From Clostridia bacterium (GTDB lineage Bacteria; Bacillota; Clostridia; UBA1212; UBA1255): a DNA stretch of 64,000 bases. The DNA lies in contig JBKUJR010000006.1 of assembly GCA_046952735.1 (NCBI GenBank), forward strand, positions 12,977 to 76,976, in the 5' to 3' direction. Shown piece by piece: positions 412 through 36,605 of the stretch. Below the pieces are notes generated by a model. That model was not told the origin of the DNA. It saw only the letters and a list, made by a program, of their open reading frames with translations, and ran no database searches. Each line of letters starts with the position of its first letter. Within the stretch, counting starts at the first letter, position 1. Made by a program: the position numbers and the translations under genes.

Positions 412-470
412 AACATTCGTTACGAAACATATGTTATGTAATACCGCTTCTGATGAGGAGATGAAACGAA

Positions 471-1932: not shown

Positions 1933-1935
1933 AAA

Positions 1936-2841: not shown

Positions 2842-2953
2842 ATTATACGTTACGGCATTATTTCATCATCAATTTCAATTCAAAAGCCGATGCCAAAAAA
2901 GCCCCTGTGCTTCTTCAGGGGCTTTTGTCAGATCTTGTTATGCAGAACGCAGA

Positions 2954-4042: not shown

Positions 4043-4080
4043 GTCAATACTCTCCTGTAATCTTCTGCACCTCTGAATCC

Positions 4081-12636: not shown

Positions 12637-13935
12637 ATGATAGAGCGTCAAAGATATCTCGATAAGCTGATCAATAAAAAAGAGAACGGACTTATTAAGG
12701 TGATTACCGGTATCAGACGGTGCGGTAAATCGTACCTGCTGTTTGAAATCTATCGTCAATATCTGAATAGTATCGGCGTTGATGATGATCACATCATCGC
12801 ACTGGCTCTAGATGACGACGAAAATATCCGATACAGAAATCCCCTTGAATTGGGGCAGTATATTCGCAGTCTCATTACCGATAAGGATAGAATGTACTAT
12901 GTGTTCCTTGATGAGATTCAGAAGGTTGCGACAATTCAGAATCCCTACCTTCCGGGCAGCGATGAAAAGGTTGGTTTTGTAGATGTTCTGCTCGGGCTTA
13001 TGAAGATCAAAAATATTGATCTGTATGTTACCGGCAGTAATTCAAAGATGCTTTCCTCCGATATTTTGACAGAGTTTCGGGGACGCGGAGATGAGATTCG
13101 CGTAAATTCTCTGTCTTACAAAGAATTCTATGACGCTTGCGGCGAGAATAACCGCCATGCATGGCGGGAGTATTTTACCTACGGCGGTATGCCGCTGGTG
13201 CTTCAGCAGAAAACGCCGGAGGATAAAAGCAAATATCTCCATGACTTGTTCGACAAGATTTATCTGGACGACATTATGTCCAGGCATAAGATCGGCTATG
13301 ACAAATATGTGCTTGACGATCTTTTGGATATTGTTGCGTCATCGGTCGGTTCTTTGACAAACCCGATAAAGATTGCAAATACCTTCAGTTCCGTGAAAGG
13401 CACGTCTGTTACCAACGACACCGTCGGTAAGTATCTGGATTTCTTTATCGACGCTTTTATGCTGTATAAAGCAAAGCGTTATGATGTGAAGGGAAGAAAG
13501 TATATCGGCTCGCCGCTGAAATACTATTATTCTGACGTCGGGCTGCGTAATGCAAGGCTGAACTTCCGGCAGCAGGAAGAAAATCATATCATGGAAAATA
13601 TCATATACAATGAGTTGCGTGTTCGCGAATTCGATGTTGACGTGGGTATTGTAGAACTCAGCACCCGCATTGCCGGAGGAAAAACCAAGCGTGTGCAGTA
13701 TGAGGTTGATTTTGTTGCCAATAGAGGCAGCAAGCGGTACTATATCCAATCGACCTTTGCCGTTCCGGATGAAGAGAAACGGGAGCAGGAAATCAGATCT
13801 CTTGTAAAAATACAGGATTCGTTCAAGAAAATCGTTGTCATGCGGGAGGATATTGAACCGTGGCATGATGAGAACGGAATTCTCTATATAGGAATCGAGC
13901 AATTCCTGCTGGATGAAGCAGCGATGGATCTGTAA
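12637..13935 (+). CDS. AAA-family ATPase (AAA_14 + DUF4143 type)
   Basis: Walker A GIRRCGKSYLL, Walker B VFLDEIQ, 432 aa. Confidence 0.8.
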   Translation: MIERQRYLDKLINKKENGLIKVITGIRRCGKSYLLFEIYRQYLNSIGVDDDHIIALALDDDENIRYRNPLELGQYIRSLITDKDRMYYVFLDEIQKVATIQNPYLPGSDEKVGFVDVLLGLMKIKNIDLYVTGSNSKMLSSDILTEFRGRGDEIRVNSLSYKEFYDACGENNRHAWREYFTYGGMPLVLQQKTPEDKSKYLHDLFDKIYLDDIMSRHKIGYDKYVLDDLLDIVASSVGSLTNPIKIANTFSSVKGTSVTNDTVGKYLDFFIDAFMLYKAKRYDVKGRKYIGSPLKYYYSDVGLRNARLNFRQQEENHIMENIIYNELRVREFDVDVGIVELSTRIAGGKTKRVQYEVDFVANRGSKRYYIQSTFAVPDEEKREQEIRSLVKIQDSFKKIVVMREDIEPWHDENGILYIGIEQFLLDEAAMDL

Positions 13936-16316: not shown

Positions 16317-16596
16317 ATTTAACCTGTAGTATAAGCGTGGAAGAGGGTCATAGAATGCAGGGAACAGCCGAGAAACGAAGTGAAATTATGAAAATCCTGT
16401 GCCGGCGCAGGAGCGAAACTGTTCGAAATTTGTCTTTTGAAATCGATGTTTCCGAACTACCATCCGACGGGATATTGAGATTCTGAGTCTTACAGAGCCG
16501 ATATACACCCAATCCGGAAGATACGGCGGCTGAAGATTGAGTTTCTGCCGGAGCTTGAAAAGAACGGATCAGGCAAGATTAAGAAAGGAGGCAATT

Positions 16597-17208
16597 ATGC
16601 TTGAATTTGAAAAGAAAGTAATGCTTGCAAAAGCAGAATATGAATTTTTAAGAGAACTTTGGCAAAACCATACAGTTACAGCGGTGCAAAATAATCATTA
16701 TTATGATACGGATGATTCTGAACTGTGCAGACAGGGGATTACCTGCCGTATTCGTGAAAAAGACGGACGCTGTACGGCAACGATCAAGGAACATCAAACA
16801 AAGTGGCAGGACTGCAACGTAGAAAATTCACGATCTGTAAGCAATAGATACGATGACGCTCTATTTCGGGATATGGGGATTTACTGTCAGGGCAGTCTTG
16901 AAACGCTTCGCAGTACATATCTCCCTTGCATCGGAGTTTCTCTGATGTTAGATCGAAACAACTATCTCGGCGTAGAGGATTTTGAAATGGAAATTGAATA
17001 TGACCGTGATCATGAGGCTGAGGCTGATGCTGAACGATTGCTTACAGGCATTGTTTTTGATCTTACGGAGCATGGGATTTTACAGAAACCGGCTGCATTC
17101 TGGCTGTGTGCCAGTTACGGGAAGAATAAGGCGGCGCGATTTTTCAGCCGAAAAGAAGAAATCTTGCGTCGAACAGGAGGTGGAAGTCATGAAATCTATA
17201 CTGAATGA
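16597..17208 (+). CDS. CYTH-domain protein (triphosphate tunnel metalloenzyme / class IV adenylate cyclase-like)
   Basis: EFEKKVML (resembling the EIERKFLV start), NHYYDTDDSELCRQGITCRIRE (YfDt...lRiR motif), and acidic DFEMEIEYD. RBS AAGAAAGGAGG. Confidence 0.6.
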   Translation: MLEFEKKVMLAKAEYEFLRELWQNHTVTAVQNNHYYDTDDSELCRQGITCRIREKDGRCTATIKEHQTKWQDCNVENSRSVSNRYDDALFRDMGIYCQGSLETLRSTYLPCIGVSLMLDRNNYLGVEDFEMEIEYDRDHEAEADAERLLTGIVFDLTEHGILQKPAAFWLCASYGKNKAARFFSRKEEILRRTGGGSHEIYTE

Positions 17209-18313
17209 AATCGTTAAGCTTAGAGGCGAACAGATGCCTGTCATTGATTATCATAACAGCAACCGTTATTGTGTAATTGCCGCAGAAAAGGATGGAAGCA
17301 AAACATCATACTGTTTTGGTATTCCGGTTTATAACCGAAAAACGAGAAGAATTATCGATTTGTTATTTCATGAAACCGAAGGCAAGTGGAAAGCAGACGG
17401 CTCAACTGCCGTAATAACTGCCGGAAATGAAATTTATTTAGAAAACCCAGACGGCTTTTCTAAAGTTGCTTTGCCTGAAAGGATTTCAGCAGGAGCAGAA
17501 CGTTGTTTGCGATACGGTATGGCGGAGATTCGACCTACGCTTAACGGCGTCTGTGTTCGGGCGGTCTGTACGGCAGATCAGACGTATGAAATTGACCTAA
17601 TAACCGGTCAACCATTTATGAACGTGCGTGCCAATGACCGATGCTTTTCCCTGATGCAGGAGGAACACAGACCGTTTATGACGGTATCCTGCATCGGCGT
17701 CTTGAACGATTTTGGTCAGATAATCGCACCGTGCATTTTTGAATATCAAAGATATCGCGATAATGCGTACACATTAATTTTTCGACAAAGCAGCCCATAC
17801 GGCAGCACTCTTCTGTTTGAAATCAATTTATATGAGGAAAAACTGTTTCAGGACACTACTGTGGAAAGCCTGCATCCCGATCTGAATAATGCATTCGGAG
17901 GTACGGCGTTTATAGGAAACACTGCTGCATACGGTGAACAATGGCTTTATTCACGTCCTGATTTTGCAAAGCTGCCGGAATTGTACGATAAACAGATACG
18001 AAAGGCAATCTTTCATTTACCGAGATTCGGTGGTAACTGTACTTTCTCCGCCTTTGGGCTTTCTGCTCGTTTTTGCAGCTTCGGTTCCAATTGGGATAAC
18101 AAAATTGAAGCGGCAGAAGAACAGGCAATCGCATATACCGACGGTGCATATCAGAGCTTGGATATTACCAGCCTGATTACCGATAATGCCGGATTTTTGA
18201 AGCATACCGAAGGGCTGATCCTCCGTCCGAAGAAGAAAAACGGTGGGTTTGCCGCAGTATCTACCGGGGACAGTTATTTTGCTCCGCAGATTTTGGAAGT
18301 GAATTTTCGCTGA
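17189..18313 (+). CDS. hypothetical protein (374 aa, beta-rich, no recognisable motif), translationally coupled to the CYTH gene
   Basis: Start ATG 17189 overlaps the CYTH stop (17208) and is preceded by AGGAGGTGGAAG. Long uninterrupted ORF. Confidence 0.6.
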   Translation: MKSILNEIVKLRGEQMPVIDYHNSNRYCVIAAEKDGSKTSYCFGIPVYNRKTRRIIDLLFHETEGKWKADGSTAVITAGNEIYLENPDGFSKVALPERISAGAERCLRYGMAEIRPTLNGVCVRAVCTADQTYEIDLITGQPFMNVRANDRCFSLMQEEHRPFMTVSCIGVLNDFGQIIAPCIFEYQRYRDNAYTLIFRQSSPYGSTLLFEINLYEEKLFQDTTVESLHPDLNNAFGGTAFIGNTAAYGEQWLYSRPDFAKLPELYDKQIRKAIFHLPRFGGNCTFSAFGLSARFCSFGSNWDNKIEAAEEQAIAYTDGAYQSLDITSLITDNAGFLKHTEGLILRPKKKNGGFAAVSTGDSYFAPQILEVNFR

Positions 18314-18464: not shown

Positions 18465-21400
18465 ATGGAAAACAAAAACTATTTTGCGGGTGAAATGACA
18501 AATGCCATTGAGCAGGATATCGTTCTTGCCCCCGATTCTGTGGAGAAGGAATCAGAACCGGAAATCAAGGATTCTGCGATTTCCCTCAACACAGAGGATA
18601 TTGCATCCGAGGATGTAATATCAAAAGAGATGGAAGCCTCGTTTGAGGTGGAAGAGACGCCTGTAAAAGCAGTGCGTGTCAATGAGATTCCCGAGCTTCG
18701 CGGAGAAAACAGCAAGGTGTTCCGCATGAGCGACGGAACCGAGCAGGCTGTATTCTATGTCGAGCCGATTCATGTGTTGAATGATGAAACGCAGTGCTTT
18801 GAAGCGGCAGATACCGAGCTCACAGAAAAGGACAACGCATTTGTCAGCGGAAAGACCCGTTTTACAGCGGAATTTTCTAAGGACGAATCAAATGACGAGT
18901 TGTTCCATATTACAGACGGCTCACACCGTGTTACCGTTCTTGTGGCAAAGATCGGTAGGCAGAAACAGGATACTGTTGCAGCACTTAAAAAGGTGACAGC
19001 TGATGAAACTGCGGCGGCTGTTGATCAGATCGCAGACAAAGTTACCTTTGCAAAGGTTGAAGCAGACGCAGACATTACCTATTCTTTGACCGCAAGCGGC
19101 GTAAAGGAAGATATTGTTGTCAGAGAAAAAGCTGACGTCTACCGTTATTCTTTCCTGCTTCGCATGGAGAATGTTGCGCCTGAATTTGACGAAGAGGAAA
19201 GGCGTATTGCTTTCATGGATCTCGAAAACGGCGAAGAGGTATTTCATATTCCCGCCCCCTTTATGACAGATGCAGACGGCAATCTTTCTTCTTGTGTCTC
19301 GTATGATGTGAAAGAACTTGACAGCGGCGAAATGCTTCTGACCGTAACTGCAGACAGCGAGTGGCTCAATGCAGAAGAGAGAGTATTTCCCGTAGTGATC
19401 GATCCGCAGATTAAGGTAAGCGGTACTAGCGCTATGACTACCTACAGTTGGGTGGGCGGAAGGATGTCTTCAGCTTCTACGCACACGATCGGTACAAACG
19501 GCTCCGGCGACGGGAACTGCAATGCTAACCGTATGTATATGAAGTTGACTATGCCGACGCTTTCGCTCAATCCCCGCATTAAGAAGGCGGAACTGAAATT
19601 CTATCAGTCTTCCGGTTCTACGCAGTGCGGCGGTTGCCCGAAGCTTGGACTGTATCAGGTAACGGACAGTATTGTAACGGGAACATGTACGCCTGTGGCA
19701 AGTTCGGATCTCATCGATTATGATACCATGAAGACAGGGCACTGTGAGGACGGCGAGGTAATCTCGTACACCTTTGATATTACCAAGCTGCTTGACGCAG
19801 TAAATAAAGGAGAAACTTCCTATGCCAATCTTGTACTGAAGATGCTTGATGAAACCTCATCCTGCAATGATAAGATCGTGCTGTACGGTAGTTCGTACGG
19901 TGGGACTTATGCACCTCAGCTTGTGGTGACATACGAATCCAGCTATGGAGTCAATACTTCCTACCGTACGCATACCCATGAACTGGGACGCTTCGGTCAG
20001 GGCAGTATCGATCTTGCCTGCGGCAATCTGATGTTTGAGTCGGAGGATTTTGCATGGGCAAGCAACAAAATGCCTGTGATCTTGAAGCATCTGTACAATA
20101 GTGCGCTTGCTTCTTATCAGTACACGGCGAACAGTACCATCAAGCTGAATACTGCAAATTTCAGCGCCATGAAGCTCGGCTGCGGTTTCAGACTGAATGT
20201 GATGCAGAGTATGGTATCTGCTTCCTTCCAGCATGAAGGTACGGCTTATACCGGATATGTATACATCGGTGAAAACGGCGAGGAGACCTACTTCAAAAAG
20301 AGCAGCAAGACTTGTACTTGCAGCAGCAATACCCAGTGCTACAATCTCTACGAGGATGTAAACGGCGGCGATATGCTGTATGATCCCGAAAAGAGAACGC
20401 TGACAAGCGGTGAGGACATCTATGCATTCGATACTTCCGGCAGACTGCTCAAAGTAACCTCCGGCAAGAACAGCATAGTTATTACCTATACCTCAGGCAG
20501 AATCTCATCTGTGACTGACGGTGCAGGACGCATATTCGGTTTTGCATATAATGCAAGTGGGTTCCTTACCTCTGTTACCGCACCTGACGGTACGAATATT
20601 CTCTATACCTATTCTGGAAATCTTCTCAGCACGGTAACTTATCCTAACGGCAAGAAGGTGACTATCAGTTACTCTTCGAATAAGCCGACTCAGATCGTAC
20701 TTTTAGAAGATGGCACGAATGTTTACAAGGTATCCTATACTTATTCCGGCAACCGCGTTGCGAGCGTGACCGAGTATGGCTATGAAAACGGCACGGCTGT
20801 GAAAGGCGCATCGACTGCATACTCTTACTCTGCAGCCTCCCGCAGAACGATTGCGACAACGACCGAGCAGAAGGAGGACGGCGAGAGCGCAAATAATGTA
20901 ATTAAAACCGTCTATACTTTCGATGATGACGGGAATATTGTCAGCGAATATGTGTATTCGCAGGATATAGGAAATATCGGTGCAGACGGCGAGGAAAGCG
21001 GAATCAATCCTCACTCCGGCGATGGTGGTGCGGGCGTTGTTAGCAACATCAACAACCTGCTTGTAAACCACAGCTTTGAAACGCTTGATAACTGGACAAG
21101 TATGCCCTGTAACTGCGGAAGCTTCTTCATCAGCAATTACAACAACGATTCCTACGCTAAGTTCGGCGGCAAAACCTGTTGGATGAGAAATCACGGACAG
21201 GAGCGTGGTATTAACGGTATCTACCAGGTAACAAATGTGCTGCCTGCCGGCAACTACACCTTTTCTGCGTATGCACGAATTGACGGTGCATTCAGCGGAT
21301 GCGAAGATTCCGGTGTGTTTATTCGCGTGACAGATACTTCGGACAATATTCTTGTGGAAAGTGAACGCCTTGTTTCCTACGATACCGAATATATCCGTCT

Positions 21401-24400
21401 GATTGCTCCTTTTGTATTGACCTCTGCAAAGAGTGTCAAGGTACAGATCCTGATTAACGGAAACGGTTCTGTGGATATTGACGCGGCACAGTTGGAAAAC
21501 AACGCTTTTGCCAATGCATACAATATGCTTGAAAACGGTAACTTTGAGCGTGGAACCAACAGCTGGAGCAAAACTGCAGGTGTATCCTATTCGACTAGCA
21601 CACGCTTTAATATGAGCAAATCTCTGTATATGTCCGGCAACCTTACTTCTTCCAGATATGCTTATCAGAAGGTGACGGTTAAGACAAGCCGTTCCACCCG
21701 TGAGACCTTTACACTGTCCGGTTGGGCTAAAGGTTACGGCATTGTGAACCGTGAGCGTGACTTTGCACAGGCTCCGCAGTTCAGGCTGCGTGCAGTAGTG
21801 AAGTATTACGATACAGCCTACAGGGAGTACGGTACTGAAACCTATACCGCCGATTTCTCACCTTGTACCGAGGAATGGCAGCTTGCATCCGTGCAGTTTG
21901 CAAAGGAAAAGTTCCGTACTATTCGGGATATTACCGTATATTGCGATTACAGCTATAACGTCGGCAGCGTATACTTTGATGATATCCAGCTTGTGCGTAA
22001 CAGCATTGAAACCAATCTCTCTGCAAGTGACTTCACGGTGGAAAGCACCGGAGGCACCGATTCTGACGAGACTGTGGAAGACGGAAAGAATACTGCTTCC
22101 GATACAACGCCTGATTTTCAGGAAGCAACAGATGCATTTGGAAATGCTCTGACCGAAACCACTTTTACTGACGGCGAATTCGGTACGATCTACCGTTCTT
22201 TCGGTTTCAATGCTGATAACGGTCAGCTTGCAGGAAATGATGCGGGTAATAACCTGATTCGTGAAACTGATGCAAGAGGAAACGATACCGAATATGCAGT
22301 TGACAGCGTAACCTCTCGCAACGAGGAAGTGATCGACAGATGTGGCAACAAGACTGCCTACGAGTATGACGCATACGGCAGAACTACAAAGGTAACAAGC
22401 TTTAAAGCTCGTCGTGATGAAAACAATAATCCGATCAGAGATAACAACTGTGAGATCGTCTATGATGCGATGGCCGATGTGTCTTACACTTACGACAGCT
22501 TTGACAATATGACCGAGATTGCTCGCGGCGACGGAATGAAGTATGCCCTTGCGTACAATGCTTTCCATAATCTTGAGTCGATCGGTGTAGACGGCAAAGA
22601 TGATAAGCTCGTCAAGTACGACTACAAGAATGGCAACGGCAGACTGAAATCCATCACTTATGCCAACGGTCATGTGATGAAGGCAACATACAATTCGATC
22701 GGTCAGATGGTTGCTGAAAAATGGTTTGCTAATGCATCCGCAACAACAGCCATTGCACACTACAAATATGTTTATGACGGTCAGGGCAACATCGTCCGCT
22801 CCATTGACATTTTACAGAAAAAAGAGTATACTTATTCTTACGAAGACGGCAGAATTATCCGTGCTACAGAGAGTGCAATTAAACTTGATGCAAACGAGAG
22901 CGTTATCGGTAAGACACTTCTTAATTCAATCCTGTATACCTATGATTACGAAGGCAAGCTGACTAAAAAGCGAATCATCCCGGCAAACGGCAGTGAGCGA
23001 GTCATCTACTATGAGAATATGGACGACAATACAGTTGTCAAGTTCACCGCAGGCGGAAAGACAGTAACCTCTCACAGCAAGACTGACAGCTTCGGCAGAA
23101 AGGTCTTCGATGAGCTTCAGCTTGGCACGGGATTTGTGTCAAGGCAGTTCCATTACCATGAGGGCGCGGTTACGCAGGAACACACGGATGCAGGGAAACT
23201 GAAATCCACTGCAACTACTCAGCTTGTGAGCCAGATTGTGCTTTCCGGCGGTCGTACAATTTCTTATGAGTACGATGCGGAAGAACGCATTACCAAGGTA
23301 ACCGACAGCATGGACGGTACAACCCTATACACTTATGATGCGCTTGGGCAGTTGCTTACAGAAACGCACAATGGCGAGCCTGTCAACACTATGGTGTATG
23401 ACAATTACGGTAACATTGTCAGCAAGAACGGCAAGGCGTACACCTACGACAGCACGTGGAAAGATCTGCTTACATCCTACGACGGGCAGTCCATTACCTA
23501 CGATGCACAGGGCAACCCGACAAGCTATCTCGGTCATACGTTGGAATGGGAAAAAGGGCGTCAGCTTAAGAACTTTGACAACAACACATATACCTACAAT
23601 GCAAATGGCATCCGTACATCTAAGACCGTAAACGATGTTAAGCACGAATATGTTCTTGACGGAAGCAAGATTCTTAAAGAGGTATGGAATGAGAATACAC
23701 TTATTCCAATGTACGATAATGAGGAAAGTGTTTGCGGTATCATCTTCAAAAATATACCGTACTATTTCCAGAAAAATCTGCAGGGGGACATTATTGCTAT
23801 CGCAGATAAGAATGCGAAGGTTGTTGCAAAATACTCCTATGATGCTTGGGGCGTTTGTACGGTAATAAGCGATATTTCCGAAACCAATATCGCGGCCGTT
23901 AACCCATACAGATACAGAGGATATTACTATGACTCCGAGATAGGTATGTATTATCTACAATCTAGATATTTCAATCCTATAGTTGGAAGATTTGTTAATG
24001 TGGATGAAACATGCTTTATTCCGTCTGACTTTTCGTTATCTACAAACTTGTGGACTTATTGCTTAAATAATGCAACAAACTATACTGACTCGAAAGGTTT
24101 CTTTGGGACACCGATCCAATGGGCATGTGCTATTATTGGAGGAGTCGCCGGGTGGTTCTTTGGAGATTATGTTGCACGAGGAATCGGACTGTTTCCTGGA
24201 AAATGGTGGCAATGGCAAACCGCTGCTTATTGGGCTGTAAGAGGTTTGGTTGTTGTTGGCGGTGCTGTTTTAGGATATGTTGCTGGAACAGTACTTCTTA
24301 AATTGGCCACCAAGTATTTGCTAATGAATTCATGGGTCGCCTCTCGCATGCCTAAAATCTTGTTGTGGTTTTTGGGTATGGGCGGCGCAGCAGGACAGGT

Positions 24401-24683
24401 TGCAAATGATATGTTTTCAAGATATGCCGGGCATATATTTTCTAATGATCATATTAGAAATGGGATTATGAGGCTAGGGACATCACAAAGAGATATATTC
24501 AATAAGATTTTTAACATAATTAGTTCTAAAATTGGTCAGGCTCAAAACGGAAGTAATCAAATATATGCGACTATCAAGGGAATTAAGGTAACCATTAGGT
24601 TTTACTTCCAAGATGGACAATTTAGAAGTATTAATGCCTTTATTGGATGGGCTAAAGATGTTATAGGAAAACTGTTGAAATAA
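18465..24683 (+). CDS. RHS/YD-repeat polymorphic toxin (2072 aa) with a C-terminal glycine-zipper-rich toxin domain
   Basis: Many YD repeats (YTYDALGQLLTE, YDNYGNIVS, YTYNANGIRTSKT). RHS-associated core PYRYRGYYYDSEIGMYYLQSRYFNPIVGRFVNVDE...NLWTYCLNNATNYTDSKGF. The CT region that follows has GxxxG-rich hydrophobic segments. Confidence 0.9.
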   Translation: MENKNYFAGEMTNAIEQDIVLAPDSVEKESEPEIKDSAISLNTEDIASEDVISKEMEASFEVEETPVKAVRVNEIPELRGENSKVFRMSDGTEQAVFYVEPIHVLNDETQCFEAADTELTEKDNAFVSGKTRFTAEFSKDESNDELFHITDGSHRVTVLVAKIGRQKQDTVAALKKVTADETAAAVDQIADKVTFAKVEADADITYSLTASGVKEDIVVREKADVYRYSFLLRMENVAPEFDEEERRIAFMDLENGEEVFHIPAPFMTDADGNLSSCVSYDVKELDSGEMLLTVTADSEWLNAEERVFPVVIDPQIKVSGTSAMTTYSWVGGRMSSASTHTIGTNGSGDGNCNANRMYMKLTMPTLSLNPRIKKAELKFYQSSGSTQCGGCPKLGLYQVTDSIVTGTCTPVASSDLIDYDTMKTGHCEDGEVISYTFDITKLLDAVNKGETSYANLVLKMLDETSSCNDKIVLYGSSYGGTYAPQLVVTYESSYGVNTSYRTHTHELGRFGQGSIDLACGNLMFESEDFAWASNKMPVILKHLYNSALASYQYTANSTIKLNTANFSAMKLGCGFRLNVMQSMVSASFQHEGTAYTGYVYIGENGEETYFKKSSKTCTCSSNTQCYNLYEDVNGGDMLYDPEKRTLTSGEDIYAFDTSGRLLKVTSGKNSIVITYTSGRISSVTDGAGRIFGFAYNASGFLTSVTAPDGTNILYTYSGNLLSTVTYPNGKKVTISYSSNKPTQIVLLEDGTNVYKVSYTYSGNRVASVTEYGYENGTAVKGASTAYSYSAASRRTIATTTEQKEDGESANNVIKTVYTFDDDGNIVSEYVYSQDIGNIGADGEESGINPHSGDGGAGVVSNINNLLVNHSFETLDNWTSMPCNCGSFFISNYNNDSYAKFGGKTCWMRNHGQERGINGIYQVTNVLPAGNYTFSAYARIDGAFSGCEDSGVFIRVTDTSDNILVESERLVSYDTEYIRLIAPFVLTSAKSVKVQILINGNGSVDIDAAQLENNAFANAYNMLENGNFERGTNSWSKTAGVSYSTSTRFNMSKSLYMSGNLTSSRYAYQKVTVKTSRSTRETFTLSGWAKGYGIVNRERDFAQAPQFRLRAVVKYYDTAYREYGTETYTADFSPCTEEWQLASVQFAKEKFRTIRDITVYCDYSYNVGSVYFDDIQLVRNSIETNLSASDFTVESTGGTDSDETVEDGKNTASDTTPDFQEATDAFGNALTETTFTDGEFGTIYRSFGFNADNGQLAGNDAGNNLIRETDARGNDTEYAVDSVTSRNEEVIDRCGNKTAYEYDAYGRTTKVTSFKARRDENNNPIRDNNCEIVYDAMADVSYTYDSFDNMTEIARGDGMKYALAYNAFHNLESIGVDGKDDKLVKYDYKNGNGRLKSITYANGHVMKATYNSIGQMVAEKWFANASATTAIAHYKYVYDGQGNIVRSIDILQKKEYTYSYEDGRIIRATESAIKLDANESVIGKTLLNSILYTYDYEGKLTKKRIIPANGSERVIYYENMDDNTVVKFTAGGKTVTSHSKTDSFGRKVFDELQLGTGFVSRQFHYHEGAVTQEHTDAGKLKSTATTQLVSQIVLSGGRTISYEYDAEERITKVTDSMDGTTLYTYDALGQLLTETHNGEPVNTMVYDNYGNIVSKNGKAYTYDSTWKDLLTSYDGQSITYDAQGNPTSYLGHTLEWEKGRQLKNFDNNTYTYNANGIRTSKTVNDVKHEYVLDGSKILKEVWNENTLIPMYDNEESVCGIIFKNIPYYFQKNLQGDIIAIADKNAKVVAKYSYDAWGVCTVISDISETNIAAVNPYRYRGYYYDSEIGMYYLQSRYFNPIVGRFVNVDETCFIPSDFSLSTNLWTYCLNNATNYTDSKGFFGTPIQWACAIIGGVAGWFFGDYVARGIGLFPGKWWQWQTAAYWAVRGLVVVGGAVLGYVAGTVLLKLATKYLLMNSWVASRMPKILLWFLGMGGAAGQVANDMFSRYAGHIFSNDHIRNGIMRLGTSQRDIFNKIFNIISSKIGQAQNGSNQIYATIKGIKVTIRFYFQDGQFRSINAFIGWAKDVIGKLLK

Positions 24684-24688
24684 TTATT

Positions 24689-25387
24689 TTGGACATCTAT
24701 AATGGCTACAATAAATTTGTAGCCATTATAGAACCGTATAGGAGGAGAAAAATGTTTCCGTTATCACAATTTGAACTTATTGAAGAATATGATGGTGAAA
24801 AGATACTTTACGAATATCAAAAAGATTTGATATTCGATATCGAATATGAGCCACACAAAATAATTAATTTAGCTTTATTGCAAACTTTGGGTACCATAGG
24901 TAGATATGATGTTGCTATAGAAGTATTAAAATATGGCATTGAAGTCACATCAGATATTCGGGCTTGTGTAATTGGTTTTTATCTTTCTGTAATGTGGAAC
25001 GGGGATTTATCCTGCTTTGAACCCAAACTGGAAGATTCTTACTTTGTGGCCAGCAAAGAGTATCAATCTATTACAAATCTTTTATTTGCAATGAAATATC
25101 GAAATCAACATAATTTTCCTTTGACGAAGAGATATTTGGAAAAATCGATTTTATTGTGCGACCAATATGTTAATAATCATCTCATGTACGCATTTTATTG
25201 TTCTAAAAATGATAGAAAAAAACATTTGGACAGCGCAAGAAACAATCTTGATTATCCTCAACAGAACAAGGAAGATTACACTTCTTTAGAGAAGATCACG
25301 GATCCAGATAATTATATTGGTGAATTTATTACAGGTAACATGATGTGTATAGACACATTTGAGTCAATTGTAAATACAATAAAGTAA
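24689..25387 (+). CDS. putative cognate immunity protein of the RHS toxin
   Basis: Starts 6 nt after the RHS stop. Low-GC, helical 232-aa protein. A paralog (27455-28057) follows the orphan CT. Confidence 0.6.
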   Translation: MDIYNGYNKFVAIIEPYRRRKMFPLSQFELIEEYDGEKILYEYQKDLIFDIEYEPHKIINLALLQTLGTIGRYDVAIEVLKYGIEVTSDIRACVIGFYLSVMWNGDLSCFEPKLEDSYFVASKEYQSITNLLFAMKYRNQHNFPLTKRYLEKSILLCDQYVNNHLMYAFYCSKNDRKKHLDSARNNLDYPQQNKEDYTSLEKITDPDNYIGEFITGNMMCIDTFESIVNTIK

Positions 25388-25485: not shown

Positions 25486-27419
25486 AAGTATGTCTATGAC
25501 GGTTAGGGCAACATCGTCCACTCTATTGACATTTTGCAGAAAAAAGAGTATACTTATACTTATTCTTACAAATTCTTACAAAGACGGCAGAATTATCCGT
25601 GCTGCGGAGACCGATATTACGATTGACGCAAACGAGACCATCACCGGCAAAACGCTTGTTAATTCCATTGTCTACAGCTATGACTCCGACGGCAAGCTGA
25701 CAAAGAAGCGGATTATTCCTGCAAGTGGCAGCGAGCAGGTCATCTACTACGAGAACAGTGACAACAATACCGTTGTGAAGTTCAACGTAGGTGGAAAAAC
25801 GGTAACTTCTCACAGTAAGACTGATAGTTTCGGAAGAAAAGTCTTTGATGAATTACAGCTCGGCACAGGCTTTGTGTCGAGACAGTTCCATTACCATTCA
25901 GGTGAGGTTATGGGTGAGAATAAGGAAAATGCAAAACTGAAATCTTCCCCAACTACGCAGCTCGTGAGCCAGATCGTGCTTTCCGGCGGTTGTACAATTT
26001 CTTATGAGTATGATGCGGAAGAGCGCATTACCAAGGTAACCGACAGCGTGGACGGCATCACCGAATACACATACGATGCACTTGGTCAGTTGTTGACCGA
26101 GAAGCACAATGGCGAAACTGTCAACACGATGGTATATGACAACTACGGTAACATCGTCAGCAAGAACGGCAAGGCGTACACCTATGACAGCACGTGGAAA
26201 GACCTGCTTGTATCCTACGGGCAGTCTATTGCTTACGATGCGCAGGGCAACCCGGCATCTTACCTTGGACATACGCTCACTTGTGAAAAGGGGCGTCAGC
26301 TTAAATCCTTTGACGGTATCCAGTACACCTACAATGCAAATGGTGTCAGAACAAGCAAGACAGTAAACGGAGTTAAACACACTTATACGCTCGACGGTTC
26401 AAAGATTCTTCGTGAGGTATGGGAAAACAACACTTTGATTCCGTTGTACGATAACGAGGATAGCGTATGCGGCATCATCTATAACAACGACCCCTTCTAC
26501 TTCCAGAAGAACCTGCAGGGTGATGTTATCGGTATCGTTGACAAGGATGCTGAGGTTGTTGCGAAATACTCCTATGATGCGTGGGGTGTATGTACTATAA
26601 CAAACGATACTTCGAGCGTTGGTATTGCTACAGTAAACCCGTATCGTTATAGGGGATATTACTATGACTCCGAGATTGATATGTATTATTTGCAGAGCAG
26701 GTATTACAATCCTACCGTCGGTAGATTTATAAGTGAGGATGAAACATGCTTTATTCCGTCTGATTTTTCATTATCTACAAACTTGTAGACTTATTGCTTA
26801 AATAATGCAACAAATTATACTGACTCGAAAGGTTTCTTTGGAACACCGATTCAATGGGCATGTGCTATTATTGGAGGAGTCGCCGGATGGTTCTTTGGAG
26901 ATTATGTTGCGCGAGGAATCGGACTGTTTCCTGGAAAATGGTGGCAATGGCAAAACGCTGCTTATTGGGCTGTAAGAGGCTTGGTTGTTGTCGGGGGGTG
27001 CTGTTTTAGGGTATGTTGCTGGAACAGTACTTCTTAAATTGGCCACCAAGTATTTGCTAATGAATTCATGGGTCGCTTCTCGCATGCCTAAAATCTTGTT
27101 GTGGTTTTTGGGCATGGGCGGTGCATCAGGACAGGTTGCAAATAATCTATATGCAAATTACGAAAGTCATATTTTTTCCAGACAACATATTGCCGATGGA
27201 ATAATGAGATTAGGCTCATCACAAAGGGATATATTTAATAAAATATTCAATGTGCTGAGTTCGAAAATTCAATATGTTGTTAACGGTTCCAATCAAACAC
27301 ATACAACAATAAAAGGGATTAAAGTGACTATTCGATTTTATTTTATGGATGGTCAAATAAAGAGTCTTGATGCTTTTATTGGTTGGGCAGGACGAATTAT
27401 CGGTAAATTGCTGAAGTAA
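25486..27419 (+). pseudogene. orphan RHS C-terminal cassette (duplicate of main RHS 22775-24683 region plus a diverged CT), inactivated
   Basis: About 80% nucleotide identity to the main gene. In-frame stop TAG at 26786-26788 where the main gene has TGG (24051-24053). A +1 G insertion in the G6 run at 26993-26998. Messy 5' junction with a short duplication. Confidence 0.8.
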
Positions 27420-27454: not shown

Positions 27455-28057
27455 TTGGAGGTTGTTATGATGGATTTAAATATGTTCAATCTAATTCAGA
27501 AATCTGAAAATGCAGAAATGTATATGTATCAGCAAAAATTAATAAATAAAATTGATGACAGAAATGGCGAGAATGCAATTAAATTGGCATTACTTTTAAC
27601 ACTTGCTCCGATAGGAGATTATACAGAAGCATTAAAGATTTTATTGTTTTTTTCTGAACTTTTTTCAAATGTAAAATTAGAAATTATAAAGTATTATTTT
27701 TTGTTACAATGGGGAACGGGCATTGATCTTGAACAAATAAAGGTGTTACTCTCGACGAAAAATTATGACAGTGAAACAGAATCACTATTTTACTATTTGA
27801 TGGCTTTGCAATTAGAGCGATTCGGAAATAAAAAAGAAGCGGCAGAAAAAATTGCATTGTCAGTAGAGAAATGTTCTGATCATGTAAATAATATCTTAAT
27901 GTATGTTAAATATTTCAAAAAAGAAGAAGCTTTATATTTGCGGAAAGCAAAAAGTAATTTGAAAATTATTGATTGCTTGGGTGTGGATTCATATGTTAAT
28001 CCAAATATGTTTATAGGAGAACATATTAGCGGAATATATAAATTGAAAATTGATTAA
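27455..28057 (+). CDS. orphan immunity protein (paralog of 24689-25387)
   Basis: Shared motifs: LALLLTLAPIGDY vs LALLQTLGTIGRY; CSDHVNNILMYVKYF vs CDQYVNNHLMYAFYC; FIGEHISG vs YIGEFITG. Confidence 0.6.
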   Translation: MEVVMMDLNMFNLIQKSENAEMYMYQQKLINKIDDRNGENAIKLALLLTLAPIGDYTEALKILLFFSELFSNVKLEIIKYYFLLQWGTGIDLEQIKVLLSTKNYDSETESLFYYLMALQLERFGNKKEAAEKIALSVEKCSDHVNNILMYVKYFKKEEALYLRKAKSNLKIIDCLGVDSYVNPNMFIGEHISGIYKLKID

Positions 28058-28520: not shown

Positions 28521-29668
28521 ATGAAAGCAGAAAACCGAAAGGGCTGCCCGCAAAGGGAAAGCGTGGAACGCGAAGAGTATGCGGGAGTGCAAAGCACCAG
28601 ACGTCGGGAAGGCGTGGAAAGGAACGGTGTGTCAGACCTGCTGGAAAGGATTCTGGACAGAAACAATCTGAACAGAGCCTACAAGCGGGTCAAATGCAAT
28701 CACGGAGCGCCAGGAATGCAATCGCACAGCAGCTAAGGCAAATCTATGAACTGATCTTTTCAGACGGCAGCTATGGTTATCGTCCGGGGAGAAGTGCACA
28801 GCAGGCTATTCAAAAGGGGAAGGAGTATGCACAGCAAGGGTATACCCATGCTGTGTCAGTAGACTTGCCCAAATATTTCGATACCCTCAATCATGAACTG
28901 CTAATGAATCTTATGCGCAAAGAAATCTAAGACAAGCGAGTCATAGACTTGATTAAGAAGTATCTCAAAAGCGGCGTCATGGAAAATGGCCTTGTCATCA
29001 GGACACAAGAAGGAGCGCCGCAAGGCGGGCCGTTATCACCGTTACTGACGAATATCTACCTGAACGAATTTGACAGGGAAATGGAACGCCGTGGCGTTCG
29101 GTTTATCCGGTATGCGGATGATATTGTTGTGCTGGCAAAGAGCAAGCGAGCTGCCGGACGATTGCTGGAATCATGCCGAAGATACCTCGAGGGGAAATTG
29201 AAACTCAAAGTCAACACTGAAAAGAGTAAAGCAGTCAGCGTTCTGGCTATTAGCACTTCAAATTTCTTGGCTTTTGTTTGGGTAAGAATGGCAGCGGTAT
29301 CCTATATCCGCGCACATAGGAAATCCTTGGCAAAAGCCAAGCGAAAGCTCAAAAAGCTGACTCGCCGCAACCAGGGCTGCAATGTCCGCAAAGTCATGGA
29401 AAACGTTAAAATCTTTATCCGTGGCTGGATTGACTGCTTCTATGTGGCTGATATGAAGCGAATACTGCAAAGCTGGAACGAATGGCTGCGAAGAAGATTC
29501 AGCATGTACATCTGGAAACAATGGAAGAAGCCTAAAACCCGCATTCAAAACCTGTGCATACTGGGGATTTCACACTTACAGGCTTACCAGTGGGGCAATT
29601 CCAGATTGGGTTACTGGCGCGTTGCCGGCAGTCAAATCTTAGCGTGTTCCATTATCGATGTTATTTAA
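28521..29668 (+). mobile_element. group II intron remnant: RT/maturase (IEP) split across three frames, 5' ribozyme domains missing
   Basis: RT domain 0 LLERILDRNNLNRAYKRVKCNHGAPG; RT domains in 28694-28930; YADD motif (RFIRYADDIVVLA); maturase/X domain (IRGWIDCFYVAD...). Only about 100 bp separate the RHS fragment from the IEP start, and no GUGYG 5' end is present. Confidence 0.75.
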
Positions 29669-30281: not shown

Positions 30282-30950
30282 TTGGTAAAGCCATATCCCC
30301 TTGAGATGGAGATATCAGGCAACACAGCGATGTGGACACGACCGGATACGGGCGATTGTCCGGTGAGTTATCCAGCCCCCACGTATTCTGCAGTCAAAGC
30401 GATATTCGAGTCTGTTTTGTGGGGGCCGGATATAGAGATTATCCCGACTAAAGTGGAATTGTGCAAACCCGTGCAATATCATACCTATTGTACAAATTAC
30501 GGTGGGCCGCTGCGGAGCACATCTGCAATCAAACAAGGAAATAGTTATCAGCTATACGCCACGGTGTTGATCGATGTCTGCTACAAGCTATACGCGCAAG
30601 TTGTGCCAAATCACAACAAAAAAGACCAGCCACCCACGGCTTTACAATGGGACATGAAAACCACTTCTCCCGGACACGCTTACCAAAGCATTTTTCAGCG
30701 TCGTTTGAAACGCGGCCAGTCTTTTTCTACGATTTCGCTTGGCTGGAGTGAGTTTACCCCCAACTACTTTGGCGAGCTTCGTGATACGACAAAGCTGCTG
30801 GATAATTTGCCTGATATCATCATCCCCTCCATGCTTAGACAAGTATTTTCTAAAGGCTATAACTCTCCGGTTTCCTACACCTATGACAATAATTTAGTGA
30901 TACAGAATGGGACGCTGGAATATCCAAAACGAGGCGTAGATTATGATTAA
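30282..30950 (+). CDS. cas5: Cas5 (type I-C Cas5c/Cas5d-like)
   Basis: 222 aa. YPAPTYSAVKAIFESVLWGPDIEIIPTKVELCKPVQY matches the Cas5d pattern Y.vPTpSAvrGileAI.WkP.i...v.rI.vl.PI, and QLYATVLIDVCYKLYAQV matches RATLALRDVAYVIEAHF. TTG start with AAAGGAGGAG RBS. Confidence 0.7.
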   Translation: MVKPYPLEMEISGNTAMWTRPDTGDCPVSYPAPTYSAVKAIFESVLWGPDIEIIPTKVELCKPVQYHTYCTNYGGPLRSTSAIKQGNSYQLYATVLIDVCYKLYAQVVPNHNKKDQPPTALQWDMKTTSPGHAYQSIFQRRLKRGQSFSTISLGWSEFTPNYFGELRDTTKLLDNLPDIIIPSMLRQVFSKGYNSPVSYTYDNNLVIQNGTLEYPKRGVDYD

Positions 30951-33027
30951 TGAACTGCACGATTTGGCAAAAACACTGGAAAACAAGGGAATCTCACCAA
31001 AAGAGTGGCATAGGGAATATAAAGCAATTCCGAAGGTTACAGAAAAATCTCCTTGTATTAGAATCTGGCTTGACTGCGATGGCGCAATTTGCGGGCTGGA
31101 GGGCCTGTCCGCGGAGCAGGCAAGCCAATTACGAAAATACGGGAACAACCAGAATAGTTTTCCAGCATTCAATATTAGCCCGCTATACCGGCTGACTGAT
31201 TTGGACAGTATTGATGAACTTAAAAGAATCGAAAACGGACAAGGCAAACCTGATATAGAAACAATTAAGTCATGGTGCAAAGAAAACAACTGGATTAAAG
31301 GAGCTCCGAAGCAAATACAAAGAAATTTAGAGGATTGTCCTCAAAGACTTTTGGAAACAATCGGGACACAGGCGCAAATGAACGATACTATTATTTTAGA
31401 ATTAGTTTCATTGTGCAAAAAACTCTGTGAAAATATTGACGGCGGATTTCGAGCCTCCCTTGAAAATTGTATTTTTACAAAATTGCAAAAAGGAGAAGAT
31501 GTGAAACTTGCCCTTGCCTTGCTGTTTCATAAAGGCTCCGCCGAGAAGGAACACAGCAAGGATGCGGGAAACAAATTATCTGTTATTCTGGATGTATGGG
31601 AGTGGAGTCGGTATGAATATCCCGTAGCCAATGAATACACTACGCTTCAACTCAATGAAATGTTGTTGGCAAATAGCGCCAATGTAGAGATACTGGCGGA
31701 TAACACCCAGTTGGACGCTTTTGGCTCTCCTTTTGTGAATCCAAACGAACCGATGCCTAGTGTAAAACTCAGTGGATTTGAAGTTACTCTGCGTTCCATG
31801 TTTAACGGCCAGCCGTGTCAGTACCGTTATGGCCAGATTGACGACGGATCCTATCCGATAACGGCAGAAAACCGTTCGTCGATTAAGAAATCGCTGGAGT
31901 GGATAACGCATCCATCGCGCAGACATGTAACCTGGGAGAAGGTTGATAAAAACGAGGTGGCGTTCGTATATCCCTCCAGATTACCTGAGGTGTTCCCGCA
32001 TTTTGCATCTGTTTTTAAGAATGATCCGAGTAAAAGCCCCAAAAGAACAGAGGCCCGGTTTGAAAATGTCGCTAAAGAGTTTGCTAAATCCTTTCGCGGG
32101 CTCCCTGTCGACCAAAAGCCGGATAACCTGCAGATATTTACAATCCGAAAGTTGGATAAGGCGCGTTCAAAGATCCTCTTCACACATAATACAACGCCAG
32201 AACAACTCATCCAAGCGGCAGACGATTGGTCGCTTGGGTGCCATAATATTCCCGAACTGGAGATGGACGAGGGAAACTCCCCGTTTCCTCTTGAGGTAGG
32301 GTCTATTGTAAATGGTGTTTGGAAACAAAACGGCGAACGGGCGGATGGAAAAACATCCGTCAAATGCATGAAATATTATCAGGGTGTAGAGCTGCTTTTG
32401 AACATCCTGCCACAGGGCGCAGTATATAACTTTTTACATATTACACTTGAACATTCATCCGGTTTAATCAATTATCTAGGCAATTTGCTTCACAGAGGCA
32501 GAAAAGACGGGAGCAGCACCGAGATAAAACGCTTAGAAATCCAAAAAAATGCGGCAGCTCAAATTCTTTCGGTTCTTGGACTGCTACTCTATAAAAGCGA
32601 CATAAGAAAGGAGAAGTATATGGAAGGCCTGGCTTATCTGATCGGTCAACTGTTGCATGTGTCCGATGAGCTCCATACGCTGTACTGCAAGATCAAAAGA
32701 AATGGAGATATCCCGCCGCAGCTGGCAGGCAGCGCTCTGTTTACGACTGCTGGCGATATGCCATTTCAGGCATTGTCACAGCTATCGACAAGACTGAATC
32801 CATACATATCATGGGCAAAACAGTATCAATTTAAAGATATCGAGAAACAAGGCGAGGAAAGCTGGCGTGCAAGATGGCTTTTAGGACTTTTGAGACAGCT
32901 ATCCAACGAAATCCATTTGCAAATGGACAAGTCTATTCGTTTTAACGACTACGACAAAGCCCAGCTTTTTATCGGTTATATGGCATCACTGCAGAAAGAA
33001 GGGCAGCTGCTCAAAACAAAATCGTAG
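30943..33027 (+). CDS. cas8c: Cas8c-like large subunit (assigned by position; 694 aa)
   Basis: Start overlaps the cas5 stop (ATGATTAA). Sits between cas5 and cas7 as Cas8c does in type I-C. No sequence motif that I can verify from memory. Confidence 0.5.
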   Translation: MINELHDLAKTLENKGISPKEWHREYKAIPKVTEKSPCIRIWLDCDGAICGLEGLSAEQASQLRKYGNNQNSFPAFNISPLYRLTDLDSIDELKRIENGQGKPDIETIKSWCKENNWIKGAPKQIQRNLEDCPQRLLETIGTQAQMNDTIILELVSLCKKLCENIDGGFRASLENCIFTKLQKGEDVKLALALLFHKGSAEKEHSKDAGNKLSVILDVWEWSRYEYPVANEYTTLQLNEMLLANSANVEILADNTQLDAFGSPFVNPNEPMPSVKLSGFEVTLRSMFNGQPCQYRYGQIDDGSYPITAENRSSIKKSLEWITHPSRRHVTWEKVDKNEVAFVYPSRLPEVFPHFASVFKNDPSKSPKRTEARFENVAKEFAKSFRGLPVDQKPDNLQIFTIRKLDKARSKILFTHNTTPEQLIQAADDWSLGCHNIPELEMDEGNSPFPLEVGSIVNGVWKQNGERADGKTSVKCMKYYQGVELLLNILPQGAVYNFLHITLEHSSGLINYLGNLLHRGRKDGSSTEIKRLEIQKNAAAQILSVLGLLLYKSDIRKEKYMEGLAYLIGQLLHVSDELHTLYCKIKRNGDIPPQLAGSALFTTAGDMPFQALSQLSTRLNPYISWAKQYQFKDIEKQGEESWRARWLLGLLRQLSNEIHLQMDKSIRFNDYDKAQLFIGYMASLQKEGQLLKTKS

Positions 33028-33033
33028 GAGGTA

Positions 33034-33924
33034 ATGAAAATGAGTAACGAAATCAAGCGAGCAACCGGTCTTTTGGTTGTTGAAGTAGTCAATTCAAATG
33101 CCAACGGAGATCCGGACAGAGAATCTGATCCGCGTCAGAGACCCAATGGAATTGGTGAAATATCACCGGTATCCTTCAAGCGGAAACTTCGTGATTTGCT
33201 GGAGGATCACGATAGCCTTTTCTTCAAAAGCCTGCCTAAAACCTATATCGAAAGCGCGGACAATTACTGGATTTTGGAGTCACGCGGCCGCGATAGGAAA
33301 TCCATTCAAAAGGAAATGGGAAAAGATATCAAGTCTTTCGATCAAAAAGAATTTTTAGAAAGCACATTTGTCAAGAAATACTGGGACGCTAGAGTCTTTG
33401 GCAATACATTTCTCGAAGAAGGCGCGAACAAGGGCTTCATTAAGACTGGCGTTGTCCAATTCGGCGTAGGCACTTCTATCTCTCCTGTTGAGATCATACG
33501 GCATACGAATACGAATAAGGCAGGCGTTCAGGAGGGAAAAAATGCGGGGATGGCTCCACTGGCATTTCGAATTGTTGCACATGGTGTCTACTGCATTCCA
33601 TTTTTTGTAAATCCAAACTTCGCCGGAAATACTGGTTGCACAGCAGAAGACATCGAATTGCTGAAAATTCTAATCCCCAGAGCATATGAACTGAATCGTT
33701 CTGCAATTCGCTCTGATATTCGTATTCGGCATGCTTGGTATATTGAGCACCGCAATGCGCTGGGAAGCTGCCCGGATTATATGCTTTTTGAGGCGTTGAC
33801 TCCTACACGTAAAGAACAGTCTGGCGATCCTTCTATAAGCTGGGCGGATTATGACGACAAAACCGCTTTGCCGGATAATCTGATCGACAAAGTTGCTTCA
33901 GTCGTTGATTTAATGCAGATATGA
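33034..33924 (+). CDS. cas7: Cas7 (Csd2/DevR family, type I-C/I-B-like)
   Basis: TGLLVVEVVNSNANGDPDRESDPRQRP matches sGLL.ieV.naNPNGDPD..N.PR. YWDARVFGNTF...GVVQFGVGTSISPVEI matches DVRlFGaVm...GPvQl..a.SidPi. Confidence 0.75.
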   Translation: MKMSNEIKRATGLLVVEVVNSNANGDPDRESDPRQRPNGIGEISPVSFKRKLRDLLEDHDSLFFKSLPKTYIESADNYWILESRGRDRKSIQKEMGKDIKSFDQKEFLESTFVKKYWDARVFGNTFLEEGANKGFIKTGVVQFGVGTSISPVEIIRHTNTNKAGVQEGKNAGMAPLAFRIVAHGVYCIPFFVNPNFAGNTGCTAEDIELLKILIPRAYELNRSAIRSDIRIRHAWYIEHRNALGSCPDYMLFEALTPTRKEQSGDPSISWADYDDKTALPDNLIDKVASVVDLMQI

Positions 33925-36113: not shown

Positions 36114-36188
36114 AGTACGTTTTGGACAGCATTAAGAAAATTTTGATCACTATTTCTCTAAAATGAATTAGCGCCTTTTTCACAACTT

Positions 36189-36470
36189 TTGCAGAGCAGG
36201 TATTACATTTGTCAAAACACCCCAGTCGTGAGGGGGCTATGCGCCGGACGGTATCTATTTTGTCAACGCTTCCTGGAAGATTTTGCTTTGCTGGTTCCAG
36301 CGATGGTAAATGGAGCGTTTGCATGTGAACTATTTCTTAAATCATTATTAAACGTCTCTCTTAGAGGACATAGACTTTATAGTGATTTATTTTGCAAATT
36401 AGAATTGTCTACTGCACAAGAGATTGAAACAGTTGTCATCGAGAGCTTCAAAAGAAAAAAGCATGTTTAG
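36189..36470 (+). CDS. hypothetical small protein (93 aa) downstream of cas3
   Basis: ORF only, between the cas3 stop and the terminator hairpin. Uncertain. Confidence 0.2.
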   Translation: MQSRYYICQNTPVVRGLCAGRYLFCQRFLEDFALLVPAMVNGAFACELFLKSLLNVSLRGHRLYSDLFCKLELSTAQEIETVVIESFKRKKHV

Positions 36471-36507
36471 CGTTTGGCTTCTTTTTTGTAACAGGAACAC
36501 AGTGTAG

Positions 36508-36553
36508 AAACCTGTCGAAAAAGCTGTAATTGCTTTATCGGCAGGTTTTTGTT
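36508..36553 (+). terminator. rho-independent terminator downstream of the cas operon
   Basis: AAACCTGTCGA ... TCGGCAGGTTT stem (1 mismatch) followed by TTTTTGTTG. Confidence 0.45.
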
Positions 36554-36605
36554 GTAATATGATGCAAACGAACAATATTTATATTTGGTAAGGGAAGATT
36601 CGTTA

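Follow-up and report, generated by a model that had tools for sequence, protein, structure and literature searches.

A hydrophobic glycine-zipper module precedes an Ntox35 toxin domain at the C-terminus of an RHS polymorphic toxin from Clostridia

A gene for an RHS/YD-repeat polymorphic toxin is found in a 64,000-nucleotide stretch of DNA from a Clostridia bacterium (contig JBKUJR010000006.1 of assembly GCA_046952735.1, positions 12,977 to 76,976). The whole stretch is called here the window, and all positions refer to it. The locus has the layout of RHS/YD polymorphic toxins, with repeats, a core carrying an autoproteolysis motif, a C-terminal region, an immunity gene and an orphan cassette. 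The C-terminal region is built of two parts, a hydrophobic glycine-zipper segment and an Ntox35 domain. Very likely the toxin is Ntox35, preceded by the hydrophobic segment as a separate pre-toxin module. The Ntox35 toxin domain itself is already known; the new part is the hydrophobic module before it. The features of the main copy are the following.

18465-24683, plus strand: RHS/YD-repeat polymorphic toxin gene, 2072 amino acids (aa), identified as an open reading frame (ORF) with Pfam and NCBIfam matches
23838-24098, plus strand: RHS repeat-associated core, aa 1792-1878 (TIGR03696, 57.4 bits against a cut-off of 32.5)
24087-24101, plus strand: predicted C-terminal self-cleavage site DSKGF, equivalent to DPxGL, the cut being expected just before F1880
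24102-24407, plus strand: hydrophobic glycine-zipper pre-toxin module, aa 1880-1981, recognized by hydropathy, family alignment and helices in an AlphaFold2 (AF2) model
24408-24680, plus strand: Ntox35 toxin domain, aa 1982-2072, of a BECR-fold RNase family (PF15534)
24752-25387, plus strand: cognate immunity gene, 211 aa, encoding a soluble, all-alpha, TPR-like protein, with an AGGAGG ribosome-binding site before the ATG

The C-terminal region had been described in an initial annotation of the window as an unclassified domain, membrane-inserting or pore-forming rather than a nuclease, to be checked by profile search. The search returned a confident match to an enzymatic toxin, an outcome stated in that annotation to refute its description. 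The final ~75-90 aa of the region score 44.7 bits (E 2.2e-11) against the Pfam Ntox35 model (PF15534), whose gathering cut-off is 23.6, and the orphan copy found downstream is above the cut-off as well. The Ntox35 clade of BECR RNases is defined by two N-terminal histidines and a serine or threonine in a C-terminal strand (PMC3482391). The predicted catalytic residues are intact: His1990 (24432-24434), His1996 (24450-24452) and the conserved Thr2043 (24591-24593) are invariant in a 20-sequence alignment. The His-x5-His spacing equals that of H199 and H205 in Staphylococcus aureus BetaH-Ntox35, in which the H205A change abolishes killing (10.1101/2025.07.24.666436). Ntox35 is listed in a review as a tRNA-cleaving BECR toxin (PMC13460014), cleavage of tRNA being reported for other Ntox35 toxins, and RNase activity is predicted for the window copy. 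In the AF2 model of the 194-aa C-terminal region (mean pLDDT, or predicted local distance difference test score, 70), the Ntox35 part is folded as helices followed by a three-stranded sheet; Foldseek returned nothing significant. Confidence in the model is moderate, and the assignment draws mainly on the score against the hidden Markov model (HMM) and on the catalytic residues, the fold evidence being supportive yet modest.

The claim that the region is membrane-active survives in part, because a conserved segment of membrane-active appearance is found at the start of the fragment, while the toxin part is Ntox35. The stretches GGVAGWFFGDY, GLVVVGGAVLGYVAGTVLL and FLGMGGAAGQVA, to which the initial annotation had drawn attention, are all present in the 2072-aa ORF, whose end had been correctly placed, and the hydrophobic region rich in small-xxx-small motifs behind the RHS core is real. 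The module is about 100 aa long, starts with FGTPIQW and runs to GQVAN at aa 1981. Its helix 1 (24132-24188) carries a G-x3-G-x3-G-x3-A-x3-G zipper and an invariant Asp, within GDYVAR. A Trp-rich loop, in which several Trp are invariant, leads to helix 2 (24243-24299), which is of transmembrane length, has a GxxxGxxxG zipper and is flanked by Arg, invariant and placed at its start, and by Lys. The C-terminal part is an amphipathic helix ending in WFLGMGG. For the module, the AF2 model has helices 5-28, 39-76 and 78-91, at pLDDT 62-80.

Transmembrane segments were predicted by hydropathy alone (Kyte-Doolittle scale, 19-aa window). The maximum of the entire RHS protein, 2.11, falls at aa 1927-1945, within the module; weaker module peaks lie at aa ~1886-1904 (1.29) and aa ~1962-1980 (1.08). 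The mean values for the three helices in 16 relatives are 1.26, 1.77 and 0.86. The module has therefore one clear helix of transmembrane length and two marginal, glycine-rich ones. Glycine makes up 15.9% of the module and 7.6% of the remainder of the RHS protein. Judged on the window sequence alone, the enrichment in zippers is modest: six GxxxG pairs are observed against 2.5 expected from shuffles (P~0.02), and two zipper triplets against 0.35 (P~0.06). In the family alignment, the FGTPxQW start is invariant in the 16 members, the helix 1 positions G14, G18, G22, A26 and G30 (module numbering) are occupied by small residues in 16/16, and the helix 2 positions G55, G59 and G63 by Gly in 15-16/16. 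Given this conservation across 16 members, the zippers are to be regarded as conserved features, and not as chance occurrences.

The carrier is an RHS protein, with matches to Pfam RHS_repeat (E 1.9e-30) and to the TIGR01643 YD repeat (E 5e-25, above cut-off). A DNRLRE domain is found at aa 336-489 (E 5e-11), a feature of WapA-type toxins of Gram-positive bacteria (PMC12704120). Equivalents of the aspartyl autoproteolysis motifs are recognizable in the core as GRFVNVD (aa 1841-1847) and NNATNYTDSKG(F) (D1875). The core terminates in NLWTYCLNNATNYTDSKG, the local form of the PxxxxDPxG(L) aspartyl self-cleavage motif; the canonical PxxxxDPxGL is known from Rhs proteins (PMC13018210, PMC10684867). 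Alignment with the canonical motif and the constant spacing in relatives predict self-cleavage before F1880. Among the relatives, a Sec signal peptide is found in some module-bearing RHS proteins (P0070 and P0067); in P0070 it is accompanied by a type I dockerin domain, which suggests display on a cellulosome-like surface scaffold.

The boundaries of the module are sharp on both sides. Upstream, it begins 1-2 residues past the end of the RHS core (F1880 is its first residue, and the TIGR03696 match stops at aa 1878), and the end of an RHS core precedes the module in 54/54 relatives with enough upstream sequence. In these the module typically lies ~37 aa after the GRF motif, directly behind the D-x-x-G of the cleavage motif; since it adjoins the self-cleavage motif, it would become N-terminal in the fragment set free by the cut. 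Downstream, DNA identity between main and orphan copies falls from 95% to 68% right after GQVAN.

No Pfam or NCBIfam family covers the module, profile searches giving sub-threshold noise only. These sub-threshold matches came from glycine-zipper and transmembrane families, such as Rick_17kDa_Anti, Bacteriocin_IIc, FtsX and UPF0154. PT-TG (PF14449) matched neither the C-terminal region nor the whole RHS protein (E<=1), nor any of 16 module sequences (E<=10). When the PDB was searched with a profile made from the alignment of the C-terminal region, the only matches were to the RHS core end of TcC/YenC/RHS2, in addition to weak ones to EmrE. No solved structure is related to the module by sequence. 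No description of the module was found in Pfam, NCBIfam, a 2012 survey or the literature searched.

The module is rare. An exhaustive search of 1.84 billion representative proteins with the module HMM gave only 85 matches (E<1e-3), in which the module is always 80-210 aa from the C-terminus. Among 185,579 species genomes scanned, 23 loci were found, almost all in Clostridia; hosts include Oscillospiraceae, Ruminococcus bromii ATCC 27255, Ruminiclostridium papyrosolvens C7, Clostridium caldaquaticum, Alkaliphilus and Anaerofustis. The sequences behind the module were grouped into about 18 clusters unrelated to one another, many of them singletons. The largest groups are Ntox35 (31 proteins) and a family that carries a WHIH motif and has no annotation (26). 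At the E 1e-3 used for clustering, some tails were merged because residues of the module had remained on them (cluster T1); the Ntox35 subset was for this reason defined by the HIFSxxH motif and the downstream family. In one cluster a PT-HINT domain is followed by a further short C-terminal region; apart from this and a sub-threshold match to Ntox33, most other tails correspond to no Pfam or NCBIfam family. A tail with an HNH-like motif (EAHHIIEQR), equally devoid of Pfam or NCBIfam assignment, was not called a nuclease. A segment joined to so many unrelated tails does not belong to Ntox35, and is not a toxin family either; sequence comparison indicates that it occupies a pre-toxin position, as a separate and reusable unit.

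The WHIH tail, which ranks second in frequency among the partners of the module, is a C-terminal domain of ~100 aa with conserved GINPF and W-H-I-H. It is exemplified by locus L003 (5842-7054) and by loci L011, L022 and L024-L027 (proteins P0036-P0038, P0042, P0046, P0064). The tail and the soluble 155-172-aa protein encoded downstream probably make up an undescribed toxin/immunity pair. At L003 a full-length RHS protein (1-4149) has a different C-terminal region and lacks the module, which is found in the downstream orphan cassette. It follows that the module does not in every case belong to the constant core, and can be carried along with the cassette that is exchanged. In two other relatives, P0019 and P0021, the FGTPxQW module is replaced before Ntox35 by a glycine-zipper hairpin that is shorter and divergent (GESPANIIGGIIGGVAGAALGYLL...VGGAVLGAFLGPYIAKLG) and represents a second subtype of this design.

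Genes located downstream of the toxins were compared across loci. The two immunity proteins of the window are homologous (29% identity, E 3e-18 by BLASTP). Both are helical and soluble, as the initial annotation had proposed, and lack transmembrane segments (maximum hydropathy 1.23 and 1.33). The protein encoded by 24752-25387 has no family in Pfam or NCBIfam, from which this TPR-like immunity family is absent, and the 2012 survey lists no immunity partner for Ntox35. A word-indexed search retrieved only five close homologues; the wider family was recovered from gene neighbourhoods. All nine Ntox35 tails at loci from other organisms are followed by a member of the same family as in the window (D1, 200-232 aa), while 7/7 WHIH tails, also joined to this module, have a member of another family behind them (D2, 155-172 aa), and other module-fused tails have other small proteins. 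Nearly all these downstream partners lack transmembrane segments. No gene, and no membrane immunity protein in particular, is common to module-bearing loci across tail types (~30 loci). The downstream immunity gene co-varies with the tail domain, not with the module. The soluble nature of the immunity proteins, puzzling if directed against a pore former, is no longer so, because cytoplasmic inhibitors are expected for an RNase, and these co-vary with Ntox35.

The reading that best accounts for the data, and is held to be probable, is that of a bipartite cargo, in which a membrane-inserting pre-toxin or translocation module is followed by an Ntox35 RNase. That membrane insertion or translocation is the actual job of the module is somewhat favoured over other functions. 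The stronger proposal, that the module is an autonomous, receptor-independent translocation domain, which stays soluble within the RHS shell and once released would enter a Gram-positive cytoplasmic membrane and carry any of about 18 small toxins across, is advanced tentatively and is rather doubtful. According to the bipartite reading, self-cleavage would leave a two-part fragment of ~193 aa in the RHS shell, with the hydrophobic helices shielded. Contact with a neighbouring monoderm cell would lead to release of the fragment. The hairpin of helices 1 and 2 would then insert into the cytoplasmic membrane of the target, possibly oligomerising via the zippers; the invariant residues Asp and Arg might pair with each other, the Trp-rich loop being placed at the membrane interface. 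The charged flanks of the transmembrane-length helix, the Asp/Arg pair and the Trp-rich loop fit such an insertion step. The module would carry or thread the attached small toxin across the membrane, and the RNase would cleave RNA, probably tRNA, in the target cytoplasm. The soluble TPR-like protein encoded immediately downstream would block the RNase in the producing cell and in its kin.

Some observations weigh against this reading. Only one of the three module helices passes the classical hydropathy threshold for transmembrane segments. The RHS protein of the window has no signal peptide, as judged by hydropathy, which reveals no hydrophobic N-terminus, the N-terminus being acidic. Module-fused tails that match no annotated family are assumed to be cytoplasmic toxins. 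Finally, a soluble immunity protein is known to neutralise a glycine-zipper toxin in the cytoplasm of the producer (ExiAB, PMC12744356), so that a soluble partner alone cannot exclude membrane toxicity.

Other interpretations differ in what they ask of the module. It is highly improbable that the whole C-terminal region is a non-enzymatic, membrane-inserting pore-former of the Tse5-CT, EsxX, TelE or BiTLP-CTD type. The conserved glycine zippers and the transmembrane-length helix would suit such an activity, conserved zipper helices being a mark of pore-forming or depolarising effectors (Tse5-CT, EsxX, TelE, TspA), and membrane-permeabilising hydrophobic C-terminal regions are known in RHS/YD shells (PMC10684867, PMC13018210). 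However, the hydrophobic region is not the terminal domain, the last ~90 aa being an Ntox35 with intact catalytic residues, and the same segment is common to about 18 tails, each with its own downstream gene. Polytopic membrane proteins, which counter channel-forming effectors "in almost all cases" (PMC12744356), are missing. The immunity pattern bears also on the view that the module is both entry device and membrane depolariser or permeabiliser, the RNase being a second hit. Precedents exist, since the Tde1 zipper causes DNase-independent growth inhibition (PMC10240207) and processed BetaH-Ntox35 retains an RNase-independent activity (10.1101/2025.07.24.666436), and the strong conservation of the module zippers is in line with them. 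Yet a lethal module would kill kin equipped with tail-specific soluble immunity only, and no module-specific or membrane immunity gene is conserved at ~30 loci. It is argued therefore that the lethal activity lies in the tail; the module may add some membrane damage, as Tde1 and BetaH do, but full lethality of the module alone is unlikely, and a dual action of this kind is considered unlikely as well.

A role restricted to the producer side, the module packing or anchoring the fragment in the shell, or serving as a processing or release element, with none at the target membrane, is regarded as quite unlikely. The position of the module is that of PT-TG in Streptococcus suis WapA, for which a function as encapsulation aid has been inferred (PMC12704120); PT-TG has been proposed also as a cleavage substrate (PMC13483458), and in Tse5-CT the initial residues are ordered within the shell (PMC10684867). 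A spacer for packing, on the other hand, would need neither a charge-flanked transmembrane-length helix, nor two invariant zippers, nor a Trp-rich interfacial loop. Moreover, the module family is found almost entirely in monoderm Clostridia, which offer a single membrane to cross, and in one member a PT-HINT release domain, distinct from the module, comes after it.

A close parallel to the bipartite cargo is S. aureus BetaH-Ntox35/AbpT (S8-PTS, ABP). Its toxin belongs to the same Ntox35 family, is about 80 aa long, and has the His-x5-His in the N-terminal helix and a Thr/Ser in the last strand. It is similarly controlled by a cytoplasmic immunity protein and preceded by a membrane-active element needed for entry; in S. 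aureus this helix, once BetaH is processed, helps Ntox35 enter cells (10.1101/2025.07.24.666436). The carriers differ, being a self-cleaving RHS shell here and a Sec-secreted BetaH cut by an S8 protease in S. aureus. The entry elements differ too, a cationic amphipathic helix in S. aureus and a hydrophobic glycine-zipper hairpin, with a role that is inferred, in the window protein. The immunity protein of the window is TPR-like. Tde1, a type VI secretion system (T6SS) DNase of Agrobacterium tumefaciens, also has a GxxxG zipper segment fused before the nuclease. There the zipper is required for membrane permeabilisation and DNase translocation (PMC10240207), not for catalysis. There is no detectable sequence relationship between the two segments, the module being far more hydrophobic; Tde1 is a small, adaptor-loaded effector of a diderm, whereas the module is housed in the RHS shell of monoderm Clostridia.

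Pseudomonas aeruginosa RhsP1 (Tse5-CT) and the C-terminal domain of the Bacillus inaquosorum teneurin-like protein provide examples of hydrophobic, membrane-inserting C-terminal regions self-cleaved and shielded in an RHS/YD shell; the shell of Tse5 shields or chaperones its integral-membrane C-terminal region (PMC10684867). In both proteins the hydrophobic fragment is the toxin itself, whereas in the window the hydrophobic segment precedes an RNase and recurs with other tails. Tse5 is countered by a membrane immunity protein, Tsi5, while the window module has no membrane immunity partner. PT-TG or "PreT" of WapA and the entry domains of CdiA-CT occupy the same position between carrier and toxin, and are similarly modular and exchanged independently of the toxin. 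They are soluble, and those of CdiA hijack specific inner-membrane proteins; in contrast, the module looks self-inserting. The module is best seen as analogous, not homologous, to PT-TG, to the CdiA-CT entry domains, to the Tde1 zipper and to Tse6-type transmembrane segments.

How RHS/WapA toxins cross the target membrane in Gram-positive bacteria is described as unknown (PMC12704120, PMC10684867). Autonomous translocation, if true, would explain this "enigmatic" entry in monoderms, and would make the module a portable delivery tag. Being clearly delimited at ~100 aa, and having zipper glycines and a pair of Asp and Arg that are invariant, it offers a mutational handle on the entry step in RHS proteins of (almost exclusively) gut and anaerobic Clostridia, where it is combined with many different toxins. 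A caution for annotation also follows: the domain behind a glycine-zipper tail on a polymorphic toxin should be checked before the tail is called a pore-former.

The orphan cassette and the spacer between toxin and immunity genes contain the following features.

24696-24732, plus strand: 16-bp stem-loop in the toxin-immunity spacer (dG -25.1 kcal/mol, z -7.9)
25490-26788, plus strand: orphan RHS-core fragment, 70-89% nucleotide identity to 22768-24068
26837-27143, plus strand: orphan hydrophobic module, 95-96% DNA identity to the main copy, with a 1-nucleotide insertion near 26995
27144-27419, plus strand: orphan Ntox35 variant (PF15534, 45.0 bits, E 1.7e-11), ~68% nucleotide identity, both His kept
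27467-28057, plus strand: orphan immunity gene, 196 aa, intact, homologue of 24752-25387

The orphan copy noticed by the initial annotation exists and diverges as quoted there, but is not intact. The RHS-core ORF is closed by a TAG at 26786-26788, resulting from a TGG to TAG change at a codon for Trp in the main copy, and the core, module and Ntox35 segments (25490-27419) do not form one ORF, because of this stop and of the 1-nucleotide insertion. These defects may reflect either real decay or errors in the assembly of a metagenome-assembled genome. The divergence, formerly placed in the middle of the copy, starts at the boundary between module and Ntox35 and continues to the stop codon. The island of 95-96% nucleotide identity (24069-24427 against 26804-27163) lies over the module, and is flanked by regions of 70-89% (core) and ~68% (Ntox35) identity; it looks like a recent gene-conversion tract or a preferred recombination joint for the swapping of toxin cassettes. 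The main and orphan immunity genes share 52% nucleotide identity. Proteins identical to the orphan toxin and immunity proteins are encoded in a Clostridia metagenome-assembled genome at NCBI (P0013, P0132), and P0013, identical to the orphan Ntox35 copy, is named by NCBI "polymorphic toxin type 35 domain-containing protein".

The stem-loop in the main spacer is overlapped by a promoter-like site, TTGAAA-17-TATAAT (24675-24703), in which 11/12 positions match. As judged from the sequence, stem-loop and promoter-like site may let the immunity transcript be expressed separately, or may stabilise it. In the orphan spacer there is no more than a short inverted repeat of 6 bp.

Directly after the orphan immunity gene, a truncated ORF for a group II intron reverse transcriptase/maturase is found (28949-29668; C-terminal part of RVT_1 and GIIM). 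A CRISPR-associated set spans 30282-36113, and includes a Cas5d-like protein, an unassigned 694-aa protein that may be Cas8c, a Cas7 and a Cas3-like helicase. A CRISPR repeat array was looked for in the patch of low GC at 36-38 kb (36000-37800), and not found. Upstream of the RHS locus lie an AAA_14/DUF4143 ATPase ORF (12637-13935) and a CYTH-domain ORF (16537-17208). The ORF located just upstream of the RHS gene (17189-18313) has a weak match to DNRLRE (E 2e-5, below cut-off).

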